Source of the DNA: a virus | DNA length: 5,022 nucleotides | IMG/VR virus record: IMGVR_UViG_3300025892_000007 | Direction: 5' to 3' (one strand) | Part shown: positions 1 through 5,022 of the stretch, in pieces | How the letters are laid out: each line of letters begins with the position of its first letter | Position numbering within the stretch: position 1 is the stretch's first letter | Translations under genes and position numbers: made by a program | The notes under the pieces: model-generated | Database searches by the model: none | What the model was told of the DNA's origin: nothing | Seen by the model: the letters and a program-made list of their open reading frames with translations, nothing else

Positions 1-127
1 CACTTCAAAGAAGGAACACCCTATACAGGATTAAAAGCAGTGACATACCAAGGCATGTTCATATGCGCAGAAATATTCAATAAACATCAATTCCCATTAG
101 TCATCACGTCAACATCAGACGGTCAAC
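1..127. repeat. Terminal redundancy, copy 1 (identical to 4896-5022); overlap of a linearised circular genome
   Basis: Bases 1-127 match 4896-5022 base for base, compared by eye over the full length. The period is 4,895 nt. The reading frame of the peptidase gene runs straight through the junction. Confidence 0.97.
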
Positions 128-306
128 ATATGGAAAACTCATTCCACTACACAGGAGAAGCATTCGACATAAGAACACGACGCATGACAGTAGTAGAAAA
201 AACAAACCTATTTAACAAAATTAAAAAAGCATTAACAGACTACAGCAAATGCTTCCAAGTAATAATGGAAGAAAATCACATACACGTTGAATACGACTGG
301 AGATAA
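1..306 (+). CDS. Peptidase M15-family zinc cell-wall hydrolase (putative endolysin). The gene wraps the circular junction: ATG at 4887, stop 304-306, 104 aa in total
   Basis: Frame 1 is open from base 1. In the duplicated copy the same frame reaches its first ATG at 4887 (MDIHFKEGTPYTGLKAV...). The product carries SFHYTGEAFDI (S-x-H-x-x-G-x-A-x-D; His codon 145-147, Asp codon 166-168) and HIHVE (His codon 283-285). This is the His/Asp/His zinc-ligand layout of M15 peptidases; from memory, phage T5 endolysin has SKHITGDAIDF ... GGHVEL. The track ORF 40-306 starts at an internal GTG. Codon usage (A/C-ending) matches the rest of the genome. Confidence 0.85.
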   Translation, partial: HFKEGTPYTGLKAVTYQGMFICAEIFNKHQFPLVITSTSDGQHMENSFHYTGEAFDIRTRRMTVVEKTNLFNKIKKALTDYSKCFQVIMEENHIHVEYDWR

Positions 307-1406: not shown

Positions 1407-1657
1407 TGGAAAACAACCTATATACCGTTTATGACAAAAAAGCAGAAGTCTACTCACAACCTTTCACAGCAATTAATGACGAAGTAGCACAACGCATCAT
1501 GCAGAACTGCGTAAACAATCCAGAGCATAATTACGGCTTAAATCCAGAAGATTACCAACTAGTAAGAACAGGAAAATTCGACGACTCAGAAGGCATACTA
1601 ATACCAGACGAAAAACCAATCTTAGACCTAATCACTCTAAAAAAGGAGCCTAAATAA
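1406..1657 (+). CDS. VP5: VP5-like small non-structural protein (83 aa)
   Basis: AAAGAGGA lies at 1388-1395. The start overlaps the VP4 stop as TAATG (1404-1408). The size and the position between VP4 and VP1 match gokushovirus ORF5/VP5. The assignment rests on synteny and size more than on a motif I can name. Confidence 0.65.
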   Translation: MENNLYTVYDKKAEVYSQPFTAINDEVAQRIMQNCVNNPEHNYGLNPEDYQLVRTGKFDDSEGILIPDEKPILDLITLKKEPK

Positions 1658-3243
1658 TGCAATCCAACATGGTCAATCGCTTCATTCAAACACCCGAAGC
1701 AAACACGCCTCGCTCAACCTTCGACATGTCACATGGTCATAAAACAACTATCGACATCGACTATCTATATCCAATCTATGTAGAAGAAGCACTACCCGGT
1801 GACACACTCAACGTCAACATGACAGGATTCGCACGACTAGCAACACCAATATTTCCAATCATGGATAACATGACAATGCAAACATTCTTCTTTGAAGTAC
1901 CAACTCGCATTGTATGGGACAACTTCAGAAAATTCATGGGAGAACGCTATCCAGACCCAGACTCATCAATCGATTACACAGTTCCAACTGCAGCAGCTAC
2001 AGCAACATCAAACTTAGTCGGTAAACTATCAGACTATATGGGTATCCCAATAGAAGTAGACGGACTCGTATACAACAACTTACATCACCGAGCATACAAC
2101 CTAATCTGGAACGAATGGTTCAGAGACCAAAACCTACAAGACTCAATTACAGTAGACACCGGAGATGGCCCAGACGCACCAGCAAACTACGTACTAAAAA
2201 AAGCAAACAAACGCCACGACTATTTCACGTCAGCCTTACCTTGGCCACAAAAAGGCGATTCAGTAGATTTACCACTAGGCACATCAGCACCACTAGCAAT
2301 GAATCCAGCAACAGGAGCAATATCAGGAACAAAAATATTTAATGCCGATGGTTCACAATATACACCCGGTGCCACAAATACTCTTGACGCTTCAACAGGC
2401 GGCTTAGTAATTAATAGCACAGGAGCGGTCAAATCATTAGATGTTTCGCCACATATGGTCGCAGACTTAACACAAGCAACAGCAGCAACAATCAACCAAT
2501 TAAGAGAAGCATTTCAAATACAAAAATTATTAGAGAGGGACGCTCGCGGTGGAACTCGATATACAGAAATTATTAGAAGTCATTTCAATGTCACAAGCCC
2601 TGATGGGAGAGCATGGCGACCCGTTTATCTTGGCGGCGGTAAGTCTAACGTTAATATCTCTCCTATCTCGCAAACTTCTTCAACAGATGCAACAAGTCCG
2701 CAAGGCAACCTCGCAGCAATGGGTACATCGGTTCTTAACAATCATGGCTTTACTAAGTCTTTCACTGAACACTCTATTGTTATCGGCCTTATCTGCGTAC
2801 GTGCTGACCTTACTTATCAGCAAGGCCTAAACAGAATGTTCTCAAGACAGACCAGATACGATTACTTCTGGCCTTCCCTATCAACTATCGGTGAACAATC
2901 AGTACTCAACAAAGAAATATACGCACAAAACGATGCAAACGACGACCTTGTATTCGGCTATCAAGAACGCTACGCAGAATACAGATATAAACCATCACTA
3001 ATCACCGGTAAAATGCGTTCAGACGTAGGCGCACACAACACCAGCTTAGACGCATGGCATTTATCAGAACAATTCGGCTCACTACCTGCTTTAAATGATA
3101 CATTCATACAATCAACAACACCTATCGATAGAGTAATAGCTGTAAACACAGAACCACATTTCATACTCGATACATTCTTCAACATCAAAGCAGCCAGACC
3201 TATGCCACTCTATGGCGTTCCCGGCATGTTGGACCACTTCTAA
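1657..3243 (+). CDS. VP1: Major capsid protein VP1 (phage F-protein fold)
   Basis: 528 aa. Conserved gokushovirus VP1 blocks are present: RSTFDMSHGHKTT, YPIYVEEALPGDT, ARGGTRYTEIIRSHF, YLGGG, PQGNLAAMG, EHSIVIGL..RADLTYQQG. AAGGAG lies at 1643-1648. The start overlaps the VP5 stop as TAATG (1655-1659). Confidence 0.97.
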   Translation: MQSNMVNRFIQTPEANTPRSTFDMSHGHKTTIDIDYLYPIYVEEALPGDTLNVNMTGFARLATPIFPIMDNMTMQTFFFEVPTRIVWDNFRKFMGERYPDPDSSIDYTVPTAAATATSNLVGKLSDYMGIPIEVDGLVYNNLHHRAYNLIWNEWFRDQNLQDSITVDTGDGPDAPANYVLKKANKRHDYFTSALPWPQKGDSVDLPLGTSAPLAMNPATGAISGTKIFNADGSQYTPGATNTLDASTGGLVINSTGAVKSLDVSPHMVADLTQATAATINQLREAFQIQKLLERDARGGTRYTEIIRSHFNVTSPDGRAWRPVYLGGGKSNVNISPISQTSSTDATSPQGNLAAMGTSVLNNHGFTKSFTEHSIVIGLICVRADLTYQQGLNRMFSRQTRYDYFWPSLSTIGEQSVLNKEIYAQNDANDDLVFGYQERYAEYRYKPSLITGKMRSDVGAHNTSLDAWHLSEQFGSLPALNDTFIQSTTPIDRVIAVNTEPHFILDTFFNIKAARPMPLYGVPGMLDHF

Positions 3244-4061
3244 TGAATAAATTAATCATATTCATAATCAACTTCCTAACGCCTACTTTCATAGGCTCAA
3301 TAATATCTGCAGGTGCCTCCTTAATTGGAGGCGCACTCGCTAATAAAGGTAGAGCAGACGCTGCAAACACAGCAGGACAATTCAATCAATCATCAGCAAG
3401 AGAAACATCAGAATTTAACGCTAAAGAGGCAAAAATAAATCGTAAATTCCAAAAAAACATGTCAAACACGGCACACCAAAGACAAGTTAAAGATTTACGC
3501 GCTGCCGGACTTAATCCCATACTATCCGCAAAATACGGAGGGGCATCATCACCAACAGGAAATGCAGCATCAGGCGTAGCAGCAACTATGCCAATGTATG
3601 ACCAACAAGATATATTCACACCAGCAGTAAACTCAGCATTAAATACTTATCAAACATCACAACAAGGAAAATCAATAGATACTCAAATACAAAAAATGTC
3701 TCAAGAGATTGAAGAATCGAAATCTCGTGCTAATCTTACAGACAGACAACGAGAGAGAATAGACTATGAAATTCCTGACCTTATCGCTAAAAGTTATAAT
3801 AGTACTGAGTCTGGCAATTTGGCTGCTCGCAATTCTGAACTTACCAGGCTAAACGCAAAAATAGCAGAACTATCACAACAAGAAAAAGACATCCTTGTAC
3901 AAAAGGCACAAATGGACTTAGAGATATTAAAACAACCAGGCACTGGTGAAATGTACAGAAAATTAACATTACTCAAAGGCGTAAACTTCTCATCAGCGGC
4001 AGCAGTCGCAACAGATGAAGCAGCACAATTCGTACAACAATTAATCCAAATGTTCAAATAA
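3243..4061 (+). CDS. VP2: Minor capsid / DNA pilot protein VP2
   Basis: 272 aa. It has a hydrophobic Gly-rich N-terminus (FIGSIISAGASLIGGALA) and the conserved block MSNTAHQRQVKDLRAAGLNPILS typical of gokushovirus VP2. The C-terminal half is charged and coiled-coil-like. The start overlaps the VP1 stop as TAATG (3241-3245). Confidence 0.9.
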   Translation: MNKLIIFIINFLTPTFIGSIISAGASLIGGALANKGRADAANTAGQFNQSSARETSEFNAKEAKINRKFQKNMSNTAHQRQVKDLRAAGLNPILSAKYGGASSPTGNAASGVAATMPMYDQQDIFTPAVNSALNTYQTSQQGKSIDTQIQKMSQEIEESKSRANLTDRQRERIDYEIPDLIAKSYNSTESGNLAARNSELTRLNAKIAELSQQEKDILVQKAQMDLEILKQPGTGEMYRKLTLLKGVNFSSAAAVATDEAAQFVQQLIQMFK

Positions 4062-4071
4062 GGAAACTATC

Positions 4072-4485
4072 ATGGAAAACCCATTCAGAACCGCATACGG
4101 CGAAAAACTAAAAATACAAACCAATAACAATCAACCATCAATGACCAAACAAAGTCTAAAAGACGATGCAGACGTCAATAAAATCATAAAACGCTACAAC
4201 AAAACCGGCGTACTACCAAATATGAATAAACTAGAATCAATCTACGGACAAATAACATCCCAAGACCTTCAAGATGCACTCAACAAGGTAGACTCATCAT
4301 ACGAAGCATTCTCAGAAGTACCATCAGACATAAGAGCACAATTCGGCAACGATGCAGGTGCCTTCATAGACTACGCCACTAATCCACAAAACATAGACCA
4401 AATGAGACAATGGAAACTCGCACCACCACCAATACCAGAGCCGATACAAGAGTCACCACCACCAGAGCCTACACCTACCATCTAA
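4072..4485 (+). CDS. VP3: Internal scaffolding protein VP3
   Basis: 137 aa. The block QSLKDDADVNKIIKRYNKTGVL resembles the conserved N-terminal motif of Chlamydia-phage-type scaffold proteins. The position directly after VP2 fits. AAGGAA lies at 4060-4065 upstream of ATG 4072. The C-terminus is a proline-rich tail. Confidence 0.85.
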   Translation: MENPFRTAYGEKLKIQTNNNQPSMTKQSLKDDADVNKIIKRYNKTGVLPNMNKLESIYGQITSQDLQDALNKVDSSYEAFSEVPSDIRAQFGNDAGAFIDYATNPQNIDQMRQWKLAPPPIPEPIQESPPPEPTPTI

Positions 4486-4491
4486 AATAAC

Positions 4492-4517
4492 AAAAAGCCC
4501 CTTTAAGGGGCTTTTTT
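4492..4517 (+). terminator. Rho-independent terminator after VP3
   Basis: The sequence is AAAAAGCCCCTTTAAGGGGCTTTTTT. The GC stem GCCCC (4497-4501) pairs with GGGGC (4507-4511) and is followed by T6 (4512-4517). The upstream A5 can pair with the T-tract. It begins 7 nt after the VP3 stop (4483-4485). Confidence 0.85.
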
Positions 4518-4560
4518 AATGGTACAACCAACCCTTCATCCCTGATAAACCAAACACCCA

Positions 4561-4589
4561 GAACAGTTACTTACTTGATGTAACTGTTC
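4561..4589 (+). promoter_or_regulatory. Perfect 10-bp stem, 9-nt loop hairpin; candidate replication origin / Rep nick site
   Basis: GAACAGTTAC (4561-4570) is the exact reverse complement of GTAACTGTTC (4580-4589). The loop is TTACTTGAT (4571-4579). The loop heptamer ACTTGAT (4573-4579) equals the core of the phiX174 origin CAACTTG/ATATTAATAAC, recalled from memory. It lies in the only long non-coding region. Confidence 0.45.
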
Positions 4590-4610
4590 CCAGTGACACC
4601 AAATCACTGG
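4590..4610 (+). promoter_or_regulatory. Second hairpin (7-bp stem, 7-nt loop) directly abutting the first
   Basis: CCAGTGA (4590-4596) is the exact reverse complement of TCACTGG (4604-4610). The loop is CACCAAA. There is no spacer between this and the preceding hairpin, so the two could stack coaxially in ssDNA. Function is unknown. Confidence 0.4.
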
Positions 4611-4728: not shown

Positions 4729-4884
4729 ATGAATTTATTCAAAGCAATATCCATAGGATTCACCGTTCTAAAATGGTACGAATCAGCATCAGAAGATGAC
4801 AAAATCACCGCTAAAGAAATTACAGAATTACTCGCTACTGTAGCTACATCAGATGCAATCAGCCACTTAACAATAGAATTATAA
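4729..4884 (+). CDS. Hypothetical small protein, 51 aa, immediately upstream of the M15 peptidase
   Basis: Hand translation gives MNLFKAISIGFTVLKWYESASEDDKITAKEITELLATVATSDAISHLTIEL. AAGAGG at 4714-4719 lies 9 nt upstream of ATG 4729. Stop TAA 4882-4884 is 2 nt before the peptidase ATG 4887. Codon usage (A/C-ending) matches the genome. It is on the same strand as all other genes. It is too short for the supplied track, which shows only an antisense ORF here. Confidence 0.5.
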   Translation: MNLFKAISIGFTVLKWYESASEDDKITAKEITELLATVATSDAISHLTIEL

Positions 4885-4886
4885 AA

Positions 4887-5022
4887 ATGGATATACACTT
4901 CAAAGAAGGAACACCCTATACAGGATTAAAAGCAGTGACATACCAAGGCATGTTCATATGCGCAGAAATATTCAATAAACATCAATTCCCATTAGTCATC
5001 ACGTCAACATCAGACGGTCAAC
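4887..5022 (+). CDS. 5' end of the M15 peptidase gene (true start codon), truncated by the window end; from 4896 on it duplicates 1-127
   Basis: ATG 4887 is the first ATG after the in-frame stop at 4812-4814. It reads MDIHFKEGTPYTGLKAVTYQGMFICAEIF..., continuous with frame 1 at the window start. Confidence 0.8.
   Translation, partial: MDIHFKEGTPYTGLKAVTYQGMFICAEIFNKHQFPLVITSTSDGQ
4896..5022. repeat. Terminal redundancy, copy 2 (identical to 1-127)
   Basis: See copy 1. There are no mismatches. Confidence 0.97.

Follow-up and report, generated by a model that had tools for sequence, protein, structure and literature searches.

Does the major capsid gene of this gokushovirus hold a second gene in an alternative reading frame? 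Gokushoviruses rank with the most abundant ssDNA phages of oceans and guts, and we know of no homologue of the phiX174 lysis protein E in any of them. A preliminary description of the DNA analyzed here (a 5,022-nt stretch, hereafter the window) had proposed that the capsid gene VP1 carries, overprinted in its +1 frame, an ORF encoding a hydrophobic protein. This core idea held up in the comparative tests reported below, and we treat the ORF, here called ORF93, as a candidate gene. The explanation that we favor as a whole, at a probability of roughly 55%, is a clade-specific overprinted membrane protein that probably acts as a holin-like partner of a phage-encoded peptidase.

Genome Context and Feature Map

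The window covers one full circular gokushovirus genome (4,895 nt) and repeats its first 127 nt at its end (1–127 duplicate 4896–5022). VP1 DNA is identical in eight other assemblies of the same virus, with no variant among them, which excludes an assembly chimera. Among GenBank phages no close relative was found, the only matches being of ~70% DNA identity and confined to the conserved VP1 core. Comparisons refer to a clade sample of 16 distinct relatives with VP1 identity of at least 68% and to a distant control of ~150 VP1 genes at most 64% identical; L223, whose VP1 match is split over contig ends and lies in two frames after rotation, was left out. The features discussed below are collected in Table 1. 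As side observations on the same genome, T3-rich patches (T at the third codon position) similar to that of VP1 are present in VP2 and VP4, and long alternative-frame ORFs occur elsewhere in this T-poor sequence, e.g., at 625–1332.

Table 1. Coordinates of VP1, the candidate gene and its parts, and the peptidase gene
Feature	Position	Strand	Description
VP1 major capsid gene	1657..3243	+	528 aa, Pfam Phage_F; older frame, host of ORF93
ORF93, candidate overprinted gene	2549..2830	+	+1 frame of VP1; GTG start, TAA 2828–2830, 93 aa
SD-like motif GAGAGGGA	2533..2540	+	From VP1 codons GAG AGG GAC; 8–10 nt before GTG 2549
Alternative in-frame ATG starts	2588–2590, 2603–2605	+	Predicted products of 80 or 75 aa
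Hydrophobic segment 1 of ORF93	2621..2668	+	aa 25–40, PFILAAVSLTLISLLS; first pyrimidine-third-base block of VP1
Basic loop of ORF93	2669..2731	+	aa 41–61, net charge +5; normal VP1 third bases, excess G
Hydrophobic segment 2 of ORF93	2732..2821	+	aa 62–91; second pyrimidine-third-base block of VP1
LAS/M15-like peptidase gene	4887..5022, continuing at 128–306	+	104 aa; 1..306 = codons 4–104 plus stop

The +1 Frame Stays Open within One Clade

The basic data of the ORF were reproduced exactly as first described (GTG 2549 with GAGG at 2535–2538, 10 nt upstream; ATGs at 2588 and 2603; 93 aa with 23 Leu), and Leu, Ile, Val, Met, and Phe together make up 41 residues. The preliminary description had asked whether the +1 frame remains open and hydrophobic in relatives, and it does: The frame is open in 13 of the 16 distinct relatives with VP1 at least 68% identical, which contain 0–3 stops where 4–10 are expected from each VP1 gene's own codon usage. 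At VP1 identities of at least 71%, 12 of 13 distinct genes have 0–3 stops against 4.6–9.9 expected (P <= 0.02, mostly <= 0.001), and this low-stop set includes the genome-wide T3-rich relatives L188, L091, and L187. L271 also has an open frame, with one stop against 3.9 expected (P = 0.057). The ~150 VP1 genes at most 64% identical, which serve as a negative control, show no depletion of +1 stops, their counts being as expected. ORF93 is limited to one clade and is not a feature of gokushoviruses generally.

Within carriers, the depletion is centered on the candidate gene. In each of the 12 carriers checked, no other +1 open run of VP1 is as long as that of the ORF93 region, and a window scan places the strongest stop depletion at ORF93 in each carrier scanned (z −2.6 to −4.7). 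When the codons of the window genome were resampled from VP1 usage outside the patch, 7.5 stops were expected against none observed (P < 2e-4). Synonymous permutation inside the patch, with T3 kept, is a stricter baseline: It gives 1.4 expected stops against none in the window genome (P = 0.066) and predicts ~27 stops against nine observed across nine lineages, with a combined P of 1.8e-4 that, like the other combined P value given here, is approximate because the sequences share ancestry.

Third Bases of VP1 Mirror the Predicted Helices

Codon usage in VP1 changes over ORF93 as the preliminary description had counted by hand, T-ending codons making up 42 of 100 at 2521–2820, 18 of 108 at 1657–1980, and 5 of 40 at 2821–2940. 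The reported codon switch is likewise borne out (TCT 5 and TCA 1 inside the patch, 6 and 52 elsewhere) and extends to ATA (0/7 in the patch vs. 41/86 elsewhere in VP1), CCA (0/4 vs. 46/72), and AAG (2/2 vs. 7/80). The T3-rich patch is real but not uniform: It consists of two pyrimidine blocks, at ~2621–2668 and ~2732–2821, with normal third bases at 2669–2731 between them. These blocks coincide exactly with the two hydrophobic segments of ORF93, whereas the VP1 third bases under its acidic N-terminus and basic loop are the usual A-rich ones.

Fourfold-degenerate VP1 codons make the partition quantitative. Across 12 carriers the fraction of purine third bases is 0.17 in segment 1 and 0.18 in segment 2, compared with 0.61 in the N-terminal region of ORF93, 0.54 in the loop, and 0.56 outside ORF93; in the window genome alone it is 0/10 and 1/15 in the two segments. 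G-ending codons account for 24% in the loop vs. 7% outside, and the loop contains Arg because the rare VP1 codons TCG, CCG, and TCG supply these third-position Gs. Taken one lineage at a time, the block pattern recurs beyond the subclade of the window (combined P = 1.2e-8), in lineages that are otherwise near synonymous saturation and whose overall T3 content is very different, from 0.16 to 0.45. Leu, Ile, and Val codons able to create a +1 stop end in A in 7 of 177 cases, compared with 16 of 51 for safe Leu, Ile, and Val codons in the same patch.

Constraint on synonymous sites was another check that had been proposed, and its outcome depends on the measure used. With composition corrected for, distant pairs show a concordance of 0.22 at fourfold third bases inside the patch vs. 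0.07 outside, so a position-specific constraint on base class is present; raw synonymous codon identity shows no consistent excess in the patch over the rest (0.45 vs. 0.58 between the window and L002; 0.46 vs. 0.58 between the window and L169). Because raw identity is not raised, the constraint lies on base class, pyrimidine or purine, and not on exact sequence. In the +1 arrangement nearly all VP1-synonymous changes are nonsynonymous in ORF93, and VP1 is highly conserved here. The constraint on VP1 synonymous sites matches exactly what a two-helix membrane protein requires.

Start Signals and Predicted Product

The GAGAGG at the start of ORF93 is the sole copy in the genome and is built from rare VP1 codons, GAG being 18% of Glu codons and AGG 7% of Arg codons. 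Motif and spacing are similar to those of VP5 and orf51. GAG AGG is retained in 7 of 13 aligned clade sequences, with GAG AGA in three further ones and also in L271; non-carriers have GAA CGT or GAA AGA at this site. GAGAGG or GAGAGA together with GTG is found in 10–11 of 13 carriers, most of which place the GTG 7–10 nt 3' of the motif. The ends of the ORF vary among lineages. The exact GTG 2549 is absent from L189 and L191, and the SD-like motif from L002 and L191; of 12 carriers, seven have ATG 2603, and L002, with two +1 stops within the 5' quarter of the ORF, has no other usable start. Termination is early, by 6–10 codons, in six lineages.

The predicted product has an acidic N-terminus (charge −4), the two hydrophobic segments on either side of the basic loop, and a two-residue tail, 'KA', after segment 2. 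Kyte–Doolittle hydropathy in a 19-aa window peaks at 1.8 in segment 1 (2.4 in a 15-aa window), which is just 16 residues long, and at 1.9 in segment 2; both 19-aa peaks lie above the usual cut-off of 1.6, a criterion of hydropathy and not the output of a dedicated TM predictor. An AlphaFold2 model is all-helical, with helices at 25–53 and 56–92 (pLDDT 72). Searches of 5.8 billion predicted proteins returned no homologue of ORF93, a Pfam scan at E <= 0.1 gave only weak, composition-driven transporter-like hits and no Microvir_lysis, and no PHROG family matched. Missing homologues are expected for an overprinted gene and lend it no positive support.

Taken with the comparative data, we consider it likely that ORF93 is a real, selected coding ORF; if it is, its product is very probably a membrane protein.

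ORF93 and a Small Peptidase Co-occur within the Clade

The peptidase has neither an N-terminal signal nor a TM segment. The preliminary description had assigned it to M15, and the motifs agree: H52-x6-D59 and H96-I-H98 are present, all four residues being invariant in eight homologues. A profile comparison gives a match to the Sonic hedgehog N-domain at its Zn-binding motif (E = 1e-4), the best Pfam E values are 2e-4 for HH_signal and 0.02–0.05 for Peptidase_M15_4 and M15_3, and, where scores are listed, no hit of the window peptidase reaches the curated Pfam thresholds, leaving the M15/LAS assignment below threshold.

All 11 carriers with enough sequence encode the peptidase. L190, L272, and L273 lack the peptidase, ORF93, and the pyrimidine blocks, though their VP1 is conserved; L190 and L272 have six and eight +1 stops, and L273 has two with a non-hydrophobic product. 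Stand-alone transmembrane ORFs lie elsewhere in these three genomes. Within the clade, a genome has either both ORF93 and the peptidase or neither. The three genomes form one group (191/200 bootstraps), mostly nested inside the carriers; VP1 alone did not resolve the placement of L190 until L272 and L273 were added. Because they form one group, the covariation of peptidase and ORF93 amounts to one evolutionary event.

Six other peptidase-bearing gokushoviruses (L263, L244, L260, L206, L199, and L105) show no +1 signal in VP1, which rules out a general partnership of ORF93 and peptidase across gokushoviruses. Within the clade, the link that the preliminary description had drawn between the two gains support from co-occurrence and a single joint loss or gain. 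Of 20 peptidase homologues in tailed-phage contigs, 15 adjoin small TM ORFs, a lysis-cassette-like arrangement; ORF93 is not adjacent to the peptidase, the two being ~2 kb apart in a 4.9-kb genome. Directly upstream of the peptidase in five carriers lies orf51 (4729–4884 in the window), which is absent from half of the carriers and has no TM-grade segment (KD17 ~1.1 in the L192 homologue).

Alternative Explanations

The pattern could in principle arise without a second gene if a neutral process or some constraint other than coding (a compositional or recombinant mosaic, codons tuned to VP1 folding or translation, a DNA or RNA signal) left an open hydrophobic frame as a by-product. A T3-rich patch by construction removes +1 stops and yields a hydrophobic product, the within-patch permutation is marginal in the window alone, raw synonymous identity is not elevated, VP2 and VP4 have T3-rich patches too, other long alternative-frame ORFs exist in the T-poor genome, and the start codon and 3' end of ORF93 vary. 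Yet the pattern persists at saturated synonymous sites and over the full range of T3 content; neither a mosaic tract nor a general codon shift predicts two blocks around a normal loop; A is avoided far more at at-risk than at safe codons of the same patch; and the rare-codon SD-like motif is largely conserved. VP1 itself has no need of the pattern, since L190, L272, and L273 keep the VP1 residues without the blocks. A structured RNA or DNA element finds no excess folding over the patch (z +0.9 for RNA, +1.6 for DNA). Codon choice for translational accuracy is rejected because the equally conserved VP1 under the ORF93 N-terminus has normal codons, and further because the pattern is missing from non-carriers whose VP1 residues are the same. 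The preliminary description had itself raised a recombinant segment from a T3-rich relative; this is not supported, as the patch has the same nearest neighbors as its flanks and the remaining VP1, with no foreign donor found for a recent block. We regard an origin without a second gene as unlikely. Far less probable still is programmed frameshifting (+1 or −2) from VP1, which would fuse the N-terminal 300 VP1 residues to a membrane anchor. Intragenic SD-like sequences are known to stimulate +1 frameshifting, as in prfB, and here GAGAGG lies inside a coding region and the +1 frame opens right after a TAG at 2531–2533. However, there is no in-frame VP1 stop and no recognizable slippery or hungry codon after the motif, a GTG or ATG stands at normal SD spacing in most carriers, and in L002 two +1 stops precede the intact 3' three-quarters of the ORF, a layout compatible with internal initiation and not with a fusion.

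Another alternative concerns function. ORF93 could be selected and yet not be a holin: It might act in single-gene lysis (E-, Lys-, or Sgl-like) by blocking murein precursor synthesis or flipping, mediate superinfection exclusion or membrane remodeling (phiX174 K-like), or help assembly or egress, with an indirect link to the peptidase. The comparative coding evidence is identical for such roles and for the holin-like one. The architecture is unlike that of classical holins, with no charged C-tail and a gene that is not beside the peptidase; other peptidase-bearing gokushoviruses do without ORF93; and orf51 could be the real partner. Set against this are the joint disappearance of ORF93 and peptidase from L190, L272, and L273, the missing TM-grade segment and patchy distribution of orf51, and the need of a signal-less cytoplasmic peptidase for some membrane lesion. 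On balance a non-holin role appears rather improbable, and the assignment of ORF93 as holin-like partner of the peptidase, all uncertainties included, is a tentative one that we rate slightly below even odds.

Proposed Mechanism and Significance

We infer translation, membrane insertion, topology, and a role in lysis from sequence comparison, and the following sequence of events would link them. ORF93 would have been overprinted de novo in the +1 frame of VP1 in one marine gokushovirus clade infecting Gammaproteobacteria. It would be translated from its own start (GAGAGG plus GTG 2549, possibly ATG 2588 or 2603) on the normal polycistronic mRNA, giving an inner-membrane protein of 83–94 residues whose N-tail is acidic and whose two hydrophobic helices are joined by a strongly basic loop. 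By the positive-inside rule, the loop would be cytoplasmic and both termini outside. Late in infection the product may permeabilize or depolarize the inner membrane, and this lesion would let the signal-less 104-aa LAS/M15-type peptidase reach and cut murein. A broader and more doubtful reading joins these elements into a two-component lysis system, a captured minimal LAS-type endolysin plus a holin overprinted in the most conserved part of VP1, and adds that VP2 (3766–3852) and Rep may hold further hydrophobic mini-genes, each with its own pyrimidine patch.

ORF93 offers a concrete, clonable candidate for a gokushovirus lysis (holin-like) factor and, if the interpretation is right, a clean case of a gene born de novo within a capsid gene under strong constraint. 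Gene callers miss overprinted genes of this kind. Pyrimidine-only third-base blocks that match +1 hydrophobic segments are a diagnostic that can be scanned over thousands of metagenomic Microviridae genomes; should the broader reading hold, pyrimidine patches could be searched for as a general mark of hidden membrane-protein genes in this family.

Comparison with Known Systems

E of phiX174 (Microviridae, genus Sinsheimervirus; Pfam Microvir_lysis) is overprinted in the scaffolding gene D; it has a single N-terminal TMD and a basic C-tail and acts alone by inhibiting MraY in an SlyD-dependent manner. ORF93 comes from the same virus family and is likewise ~90 aa, Leu-rich, placed as a whole gene in the +1 frame of an essential morphogenetic gene, overlooked by gene callers, and lineage-restricted. 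It is not homologous to E: The two share no sequence similarity, the host gene is a capsid instead of a scaffold gene, an acidic N-tail and two hydrophobic segments replace the single N-terminal TMD and basic C-tail, and, unlike phages with E-only lysis, those with ORF93 additionally encode a murein peptidase. Of the analogy to E that the preliminary description had offered, the principle of overprinting stands, whereas sequence relationship, host gene, and architecture do not.

Another comparison is with the class II (two-TMD) holins of tailed phages and with pinholins, e.g., S21 of phage 21, which are paired with an endolysin. Like them, ORF93 is small with two predicted hydrophobic helices and co-occurs with a signal-less cell-wall hydrolase, and its possible starts (GTG 2549, ATG 2588, and ATG 2603) recall the dual starts of holin/antiholin pairs. 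It differs from two-TMD holins in having no holin-family homology, no endolysin gene beside it, a position inside a capsid gene, no charged hydrophilic C-terminal cytoplasmic domain, and a topology predicted from loop charge as N-out/C-out instead of N-in/C-in.

Overprinting itself has precedents in this family. The K and B genes of phiX174 are overprinted within A. Overprinted ORFs have been reported in Rep of reekeekeeviruses (PMC9865509). ORF93 resembles both as a candidate de novo gene inside an older gene, found through conservation of an alternative frame; their sites are Rep or gene junctions, that of ORF93 the capsid gene. The literature searched yielded no case of overprinting within the most conserved stretch of a gokushovirus capsid gene. 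Microviridae M15/LAS peptidases have been proposed as endolysins, with no holin identified (Roux et al. 2012, PMC3394797). For the present clade, and for no other, ORF93 is a candidate for such a holin. The protein of the present clade differs from these peptidases in being a minimal one (104 aa) under Pfam thresholds, and it resembles them as a small LAS-fold Zn-peptidase without a signal peptide, encoded in the variable VP3–VP4 region.

Genome Organization and the Candidate ORF

The window contains a gokushovirus genome, circular and complete at 4,895 nt, with the first 127 nt repeated at the end. Identical VP1 DNA occurs in eight other assemblies (JGI, ENA, and Logan), and the sequence is therefore not a chimera. 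The coding strand is unusually rich in A and poor in T (A 39%, T 21%, G 16%), and third positions of the capsid gene VP1 comprise 43% A, 21% T, and only 7% G. Relatives range from the same bias (T at VP1 third codon positions, T3, of 0.13 in L190) up to 0.45; composition therefore shifts quickly within the clade.

The 93-aa candidate ORF93 lies in the +1 frame of VP1, beneath a T3-rich patch. The figures of the preliminary description were exact on recount: coordinates and length, 23 Leu, 41 L/I/V/M/F residues, +1 frame, upstream GAGG, two internal ATGs, and T-ending VP1 codons at 42/100 in the patch, 18/108 at the gene start, and 5/40 just downstream. The codon switch it described is real (TCA to TCT, CTA/GTA to CTT/GTT, AAA to AAG, with ATA vanishing), as is the similar patch in VP2; this and other T3-rich patches in VP4 and VP1 are weaker or shorter.

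Coordinates of genes, candidate ORFs, and sequence elements in the window
Feature	Coordinates	Strand
110-aa ORF	287-619	
38-aa basic gene	309-425	+
VP4/Rep	423-1406	
Rep +1-frame 235-aa ORF	625-1332	+
VP4 T3-rich patch	~753-857	
VP5	1406-1657	
VP1	1657-3243	
VP1 +2-frame stop-depleted stretch (listed ORF 2115-2342)	~1990-2342	+
Further VP1 T3-rich patch	~2320-2440	
GAGG	2535-2538	
ORF93	2549-2830	+
ORF93 internal ATGs	2588 and 2603	
VP2	3243-4061	
VP2 T3-rich patch	~3690-3860	
VP2 +1-frame mini-ORF	3766-3852	+
VP3	4072-4485	
Hairpin and T run	4494-4518	
Inverted repeat (within 4558-4603)	4561-4589	
51-aa ORF (orf51)	4729-4884	+
104-aa gene (peptidase)	4887-5022, then 128-306, across junction	

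Several further elements were observed. Directly 3' of VP3, AAAAAGCCCCTTTAAGGGGCTTTTTT combines a GC-rich hairpin with a T run after it and resembles an intrinsic terminator. The noncoding region also holds a perfect inverted repeat of 10 bp (GAACAGTTAC / GTAACTGTTC) separated by a 9-nt loop. Alone in the genome, this part shares 93-95% DNA identity with gokushoviruses that are otherwise unrelated and come from human, lemur, bird, and monkey samples; it is likely a replication-origin or integration (dif-like) signal. The highly basic 38-aa gene (MKRYPTKNSKQKFRNTAGLQHKSNTLQPIARGGTRL), conserved in L188, L192, L271, L272, and L190 (…GRVHK.N…MRGGTRL), probably encodes the gokushovirus small DNA-binding protein; in some pipelines the call went to the overlapping 110-aa ORF in its place.

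Other alternative frames also hold ORFs. The VP2 patch contains a 28-aa +1-frame mini-ORF (MKFLTLSLKVIIVLSLAIWLLAILNLPG) with one TM-like helix and an SD-like GAGAGAGAA 5' of it, which may encode a second overprinted membrane peptide. L001 and L002 carry a T3-rich patch and similar hydrophobic segment at the same place (in L002 without an ATG), and L191 has a comparable patch and segment near the VP2 end; other clade members have none. The sole hydrophobic stretch (TVTIVGGLIITLLYSAMTLAT) of the 235-aa Rep-frame ORF falls within the VP4 patch, and this ORF may be due to chance, since a T-poor genome is expected to hold long alternative-frame ORFs. The VP1 +2 frame is stop-depleted over one stretch (0-1 vs. 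~6.5 expected, z to −3.5), overlapping VP1 sequence nearly without T-ending codons; its product is very basic and Arg/Lys-rich (MVQRPKPTRLNYSRHRRWPRR...), and the frame runs open in L001 from the same Met; in L002 it is broken.

Conservation of the +1 Frame across Relatives

No close relative of the window was found among GenBank phages. Metagenomic collections supplied VP1 DNA from 16 distinct genes at 68-85% amino-acid identity and ~150 at ≤64%. Two relatives, at 73-74% VP1 identity, are prophages within Gammaproteobacteria contigs: L169 (1-8577) occupies one end of a 354-kb MAG contig, and L189 (1-9572) is flanked by an AsmA-family gene on one side and DUF4124, aminotransferase, and TatD genes on the other. 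The hosts are therefore Gram-negative, and these prophages indicate a temperate lifestyle and the host group of the clade.

We aligned 167 VP1 genes codon by codon and tallied +1 stops across the alignment columns that correspond to ORF93; expectations came from resampling codons of the same gene outside the patch. The frame stays open, as the preliminary description had asked of relatives: among the 13 genes at ≥71% identity, 12 carry 0-3 stops where 4.6-9.9 would be expected (P ≤ 0.02, mostly ≤ 0.001). The 12 include relatives with T3-rich codons throughout (L188, 0 vs. 5.2; L187, 0 vs. 5.8); L271 is open more weakly (1 vs. 3.9, P = 0.057). In each of the 12 carriers (relatives with the frame open) that were checked, the longest +1 open run within VP1 is that of the ORF93 region, which also shows the strongest +1 stop depletion in sliding windows across seven carriers (z −2.6 to −4.7). 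The ~150 distant VP1 genes had stops as expected, with P spread from 0.01 to 1, so the stop test is not biased by local amino-acid sequence. The nearest outgroup, L154 (1 vs. 7.1 expected, similar architecture), is a possible extra carrier, as are, less clearly, L018 and L104.

At the candidate start signal, the VP1 codons GAG AGG GAC sit 8-10 bases before the GTG; GAG makes up 18% of Glu and AGG 7% of Arg codons, and GAGAGG occurs nowhere else in the genome. In motif (AGAGG) and spacing, the site is similar to the ribosome-binding sites of VP5 and orf51. Seven of 13 aligned clade sequences keep GAG AGG and three more read GAG AGA, as does L271, with GTG 7-10 nt downstream in most carriers; the three noncarriers have GAA CGT or GAA AGA at this site. 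The start is not invariant, in that L002 has two early +1 stops and its only usable start is the ATG equivalent to 2603, and the 3' end falls 6-10 codons early in six lineages.

Constraint beyond T3 Content and Rival Explanations

An unlikely alternative is that no second gene exists at ORF93. The preliminary description had cautioned that a T3-rich patch itself removes +1 stops, so that ORF and patch are not independent; three results go further. Permuting synonymous codons within the patch, its composition kept, gives P = 0.066 for the window alone and, totaled over nine lineages, ~27 expected stops against 9 observed (combined P = 1.8e-4). Leu/Ile/Val codons whose A ending would create a +1 stop end in A in 7/177 cases in the patch, compared with 16/51 in safe contexts there; outside it, the values are 42% at-risk and 63% safe. 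The patch is also not uniform: among fourfold-degenerate codons, the purine third-base fraction is 0.17 and 0.18 under hydrophobic segments 1 and 2, 0.61 under the N-terminal 24 residues, 0.54 under the loop, and 0.56 elsewhere in VP1. G-ending codons are in excess under the loop (24% vs. 7%), where the rare VP1 codons TCG, CCG, and TCG yield +1-frame Arg codons. Because the blocks were defined on the window, the window's own subclade gives a circular test; L184, L189, L188, L187, L091, and L192 do not (each P 0.0014-0.015; combined P = 1.2e-8 once L191 and L002 are included), and noncarriers show no pattern.

A recombinant block, also raised earlier, finds no sign of a foreign donor: the nearest relatives of the patch are those of the rest of VP1 (L185, L001). 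Clade lineages are near saturation at synonymous sites, and composition-corrected concordance of fourfold third bases in distant pairs is 0.07 outside the patch and 0.22 inside. With overall T3 of these lineages at 0.16 to 0.45, a neutral inherited or recombinant tract should have drifted toward the composition of the genome it sits in. It is also unlikely that the codons are tuned for VP1 itself, given ordinary codons in the equally conserved stretch under the ORF93 N terminus and absence of the pattern in L190, L272, and L273 with VP1 residues kept. RNA or DNA structure was rejected, as the segment folds no better than shuffles (z +0.9 RNA, +1.6 DNA), and a frameshift fusion is very improbable. 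The expected synonymous constraint on VP1 acts on base class, T or C versus A or G; raw codon identity shows no consistent rise in the patch over the rest. Constraint of this kind is what a +1-frame membrane helix requires because the VP1 third base is the ORF93 second codon base. Together, the sequence comparisons support an overlapping coding sequence under selection at ORF93.

Association with the Peptidase

The 104-aa protein, the proposed partner, has invariant H-x6-D and H-x-H motifs and matches the LAS-fold zinc site (Sonic hedgehog N-domain, E = 1e-4); Pfam M15-family matches are sub-threshold, and no signal or TM segment was found in it. Within the clade, the peptidase is present in all 11 carriers with enough sequence, and L190, L272, and L273 have neither it nor ORF93 (6, 8, and 2 +1 stops, respectively; the L273 product is not hydrophobic). 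These three form one group in 191/200 NJ bootstraps, usually nested within carriers, which are monophyletic in just 37/200 replicates; the covariation amounts to one joint event, most simply loss of both. Stand-alone small TM ORFs lie between VP3 and VP4 in L273 (772-1268; 86 aa and 75 aa) and L190 (~802-1320; two, uncalled, one similar to the L273 75-aa protein), which suggests a swapped lysis module. Six gokushoviruses of other lineages with the peptidase show no +1 signal in VP1; ORF93 appears to be a clade-specific solution and not a universal partner. The 51-aa ORF directly 5' of the peptidase gene, with a short amphipathic N terminus (LFKAISIGFTVLKW) and acidic remainder, is conserved in L002, L169, L187, and L192 and absent from other carriers; its product could modulate the peptidase.

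Predicted Product and Comparison with Known Systems

From N to C terminus, ORF93 consists of an acidic tail (net −4), hydrophobic segment 1 (16 residues), a basic loop (21 residues, +5), hydrophobic segment 2 (30 residues), and a final KA, with Kyte-Doolittle 19-residue peaks of 1.8 and 1.9. Single-sequence AlphaFold2 predicts helices at 5-22, 25-53, and 56-92 (mean pLDDT 72). The positive-inside rule predicts a cytoplasmic loop and two periplasmic ends. ORF93 would be translated on late mRNA from its own SD and GTG, insert into the inner membrane as a helical hairpin and, at a critical level, permeabilize or depolarize it, whereby the cytoplasmic peptidase could gain access to murein. Sequence comparison backs a coding, hydrophobic ORF93 that covaries with the peptidase, and the function proposed earlier is plausible; single-gene lysis or another membrane function is rather doubtful.

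Protein and family searches found no homologues of ORF93, and open-access papers and bioRxiv yielded no description of a membrane ORF overprinted in the capsid gene of a gokushovirus. The proposed analogy with phiX174 E extends only to a Leu-rich microvirus membrane protein overprinted in the +1 frame, whereas sequence, host gene, and architecture all set ORF93 apart from the E family. In tailed phages, small TM ORFs adjoin peptidase homologues in 15 of 20 contig cases (a crude scan with no background control), the arrangement of holin-endolysin cassettes. Unlike ORF93, two-TMD holins have a charged C-terminal domain and a gene adjacent to the endolysin; it resembles them in size, predicted helices, and co-occurrence within the clade with a putative endolysin.
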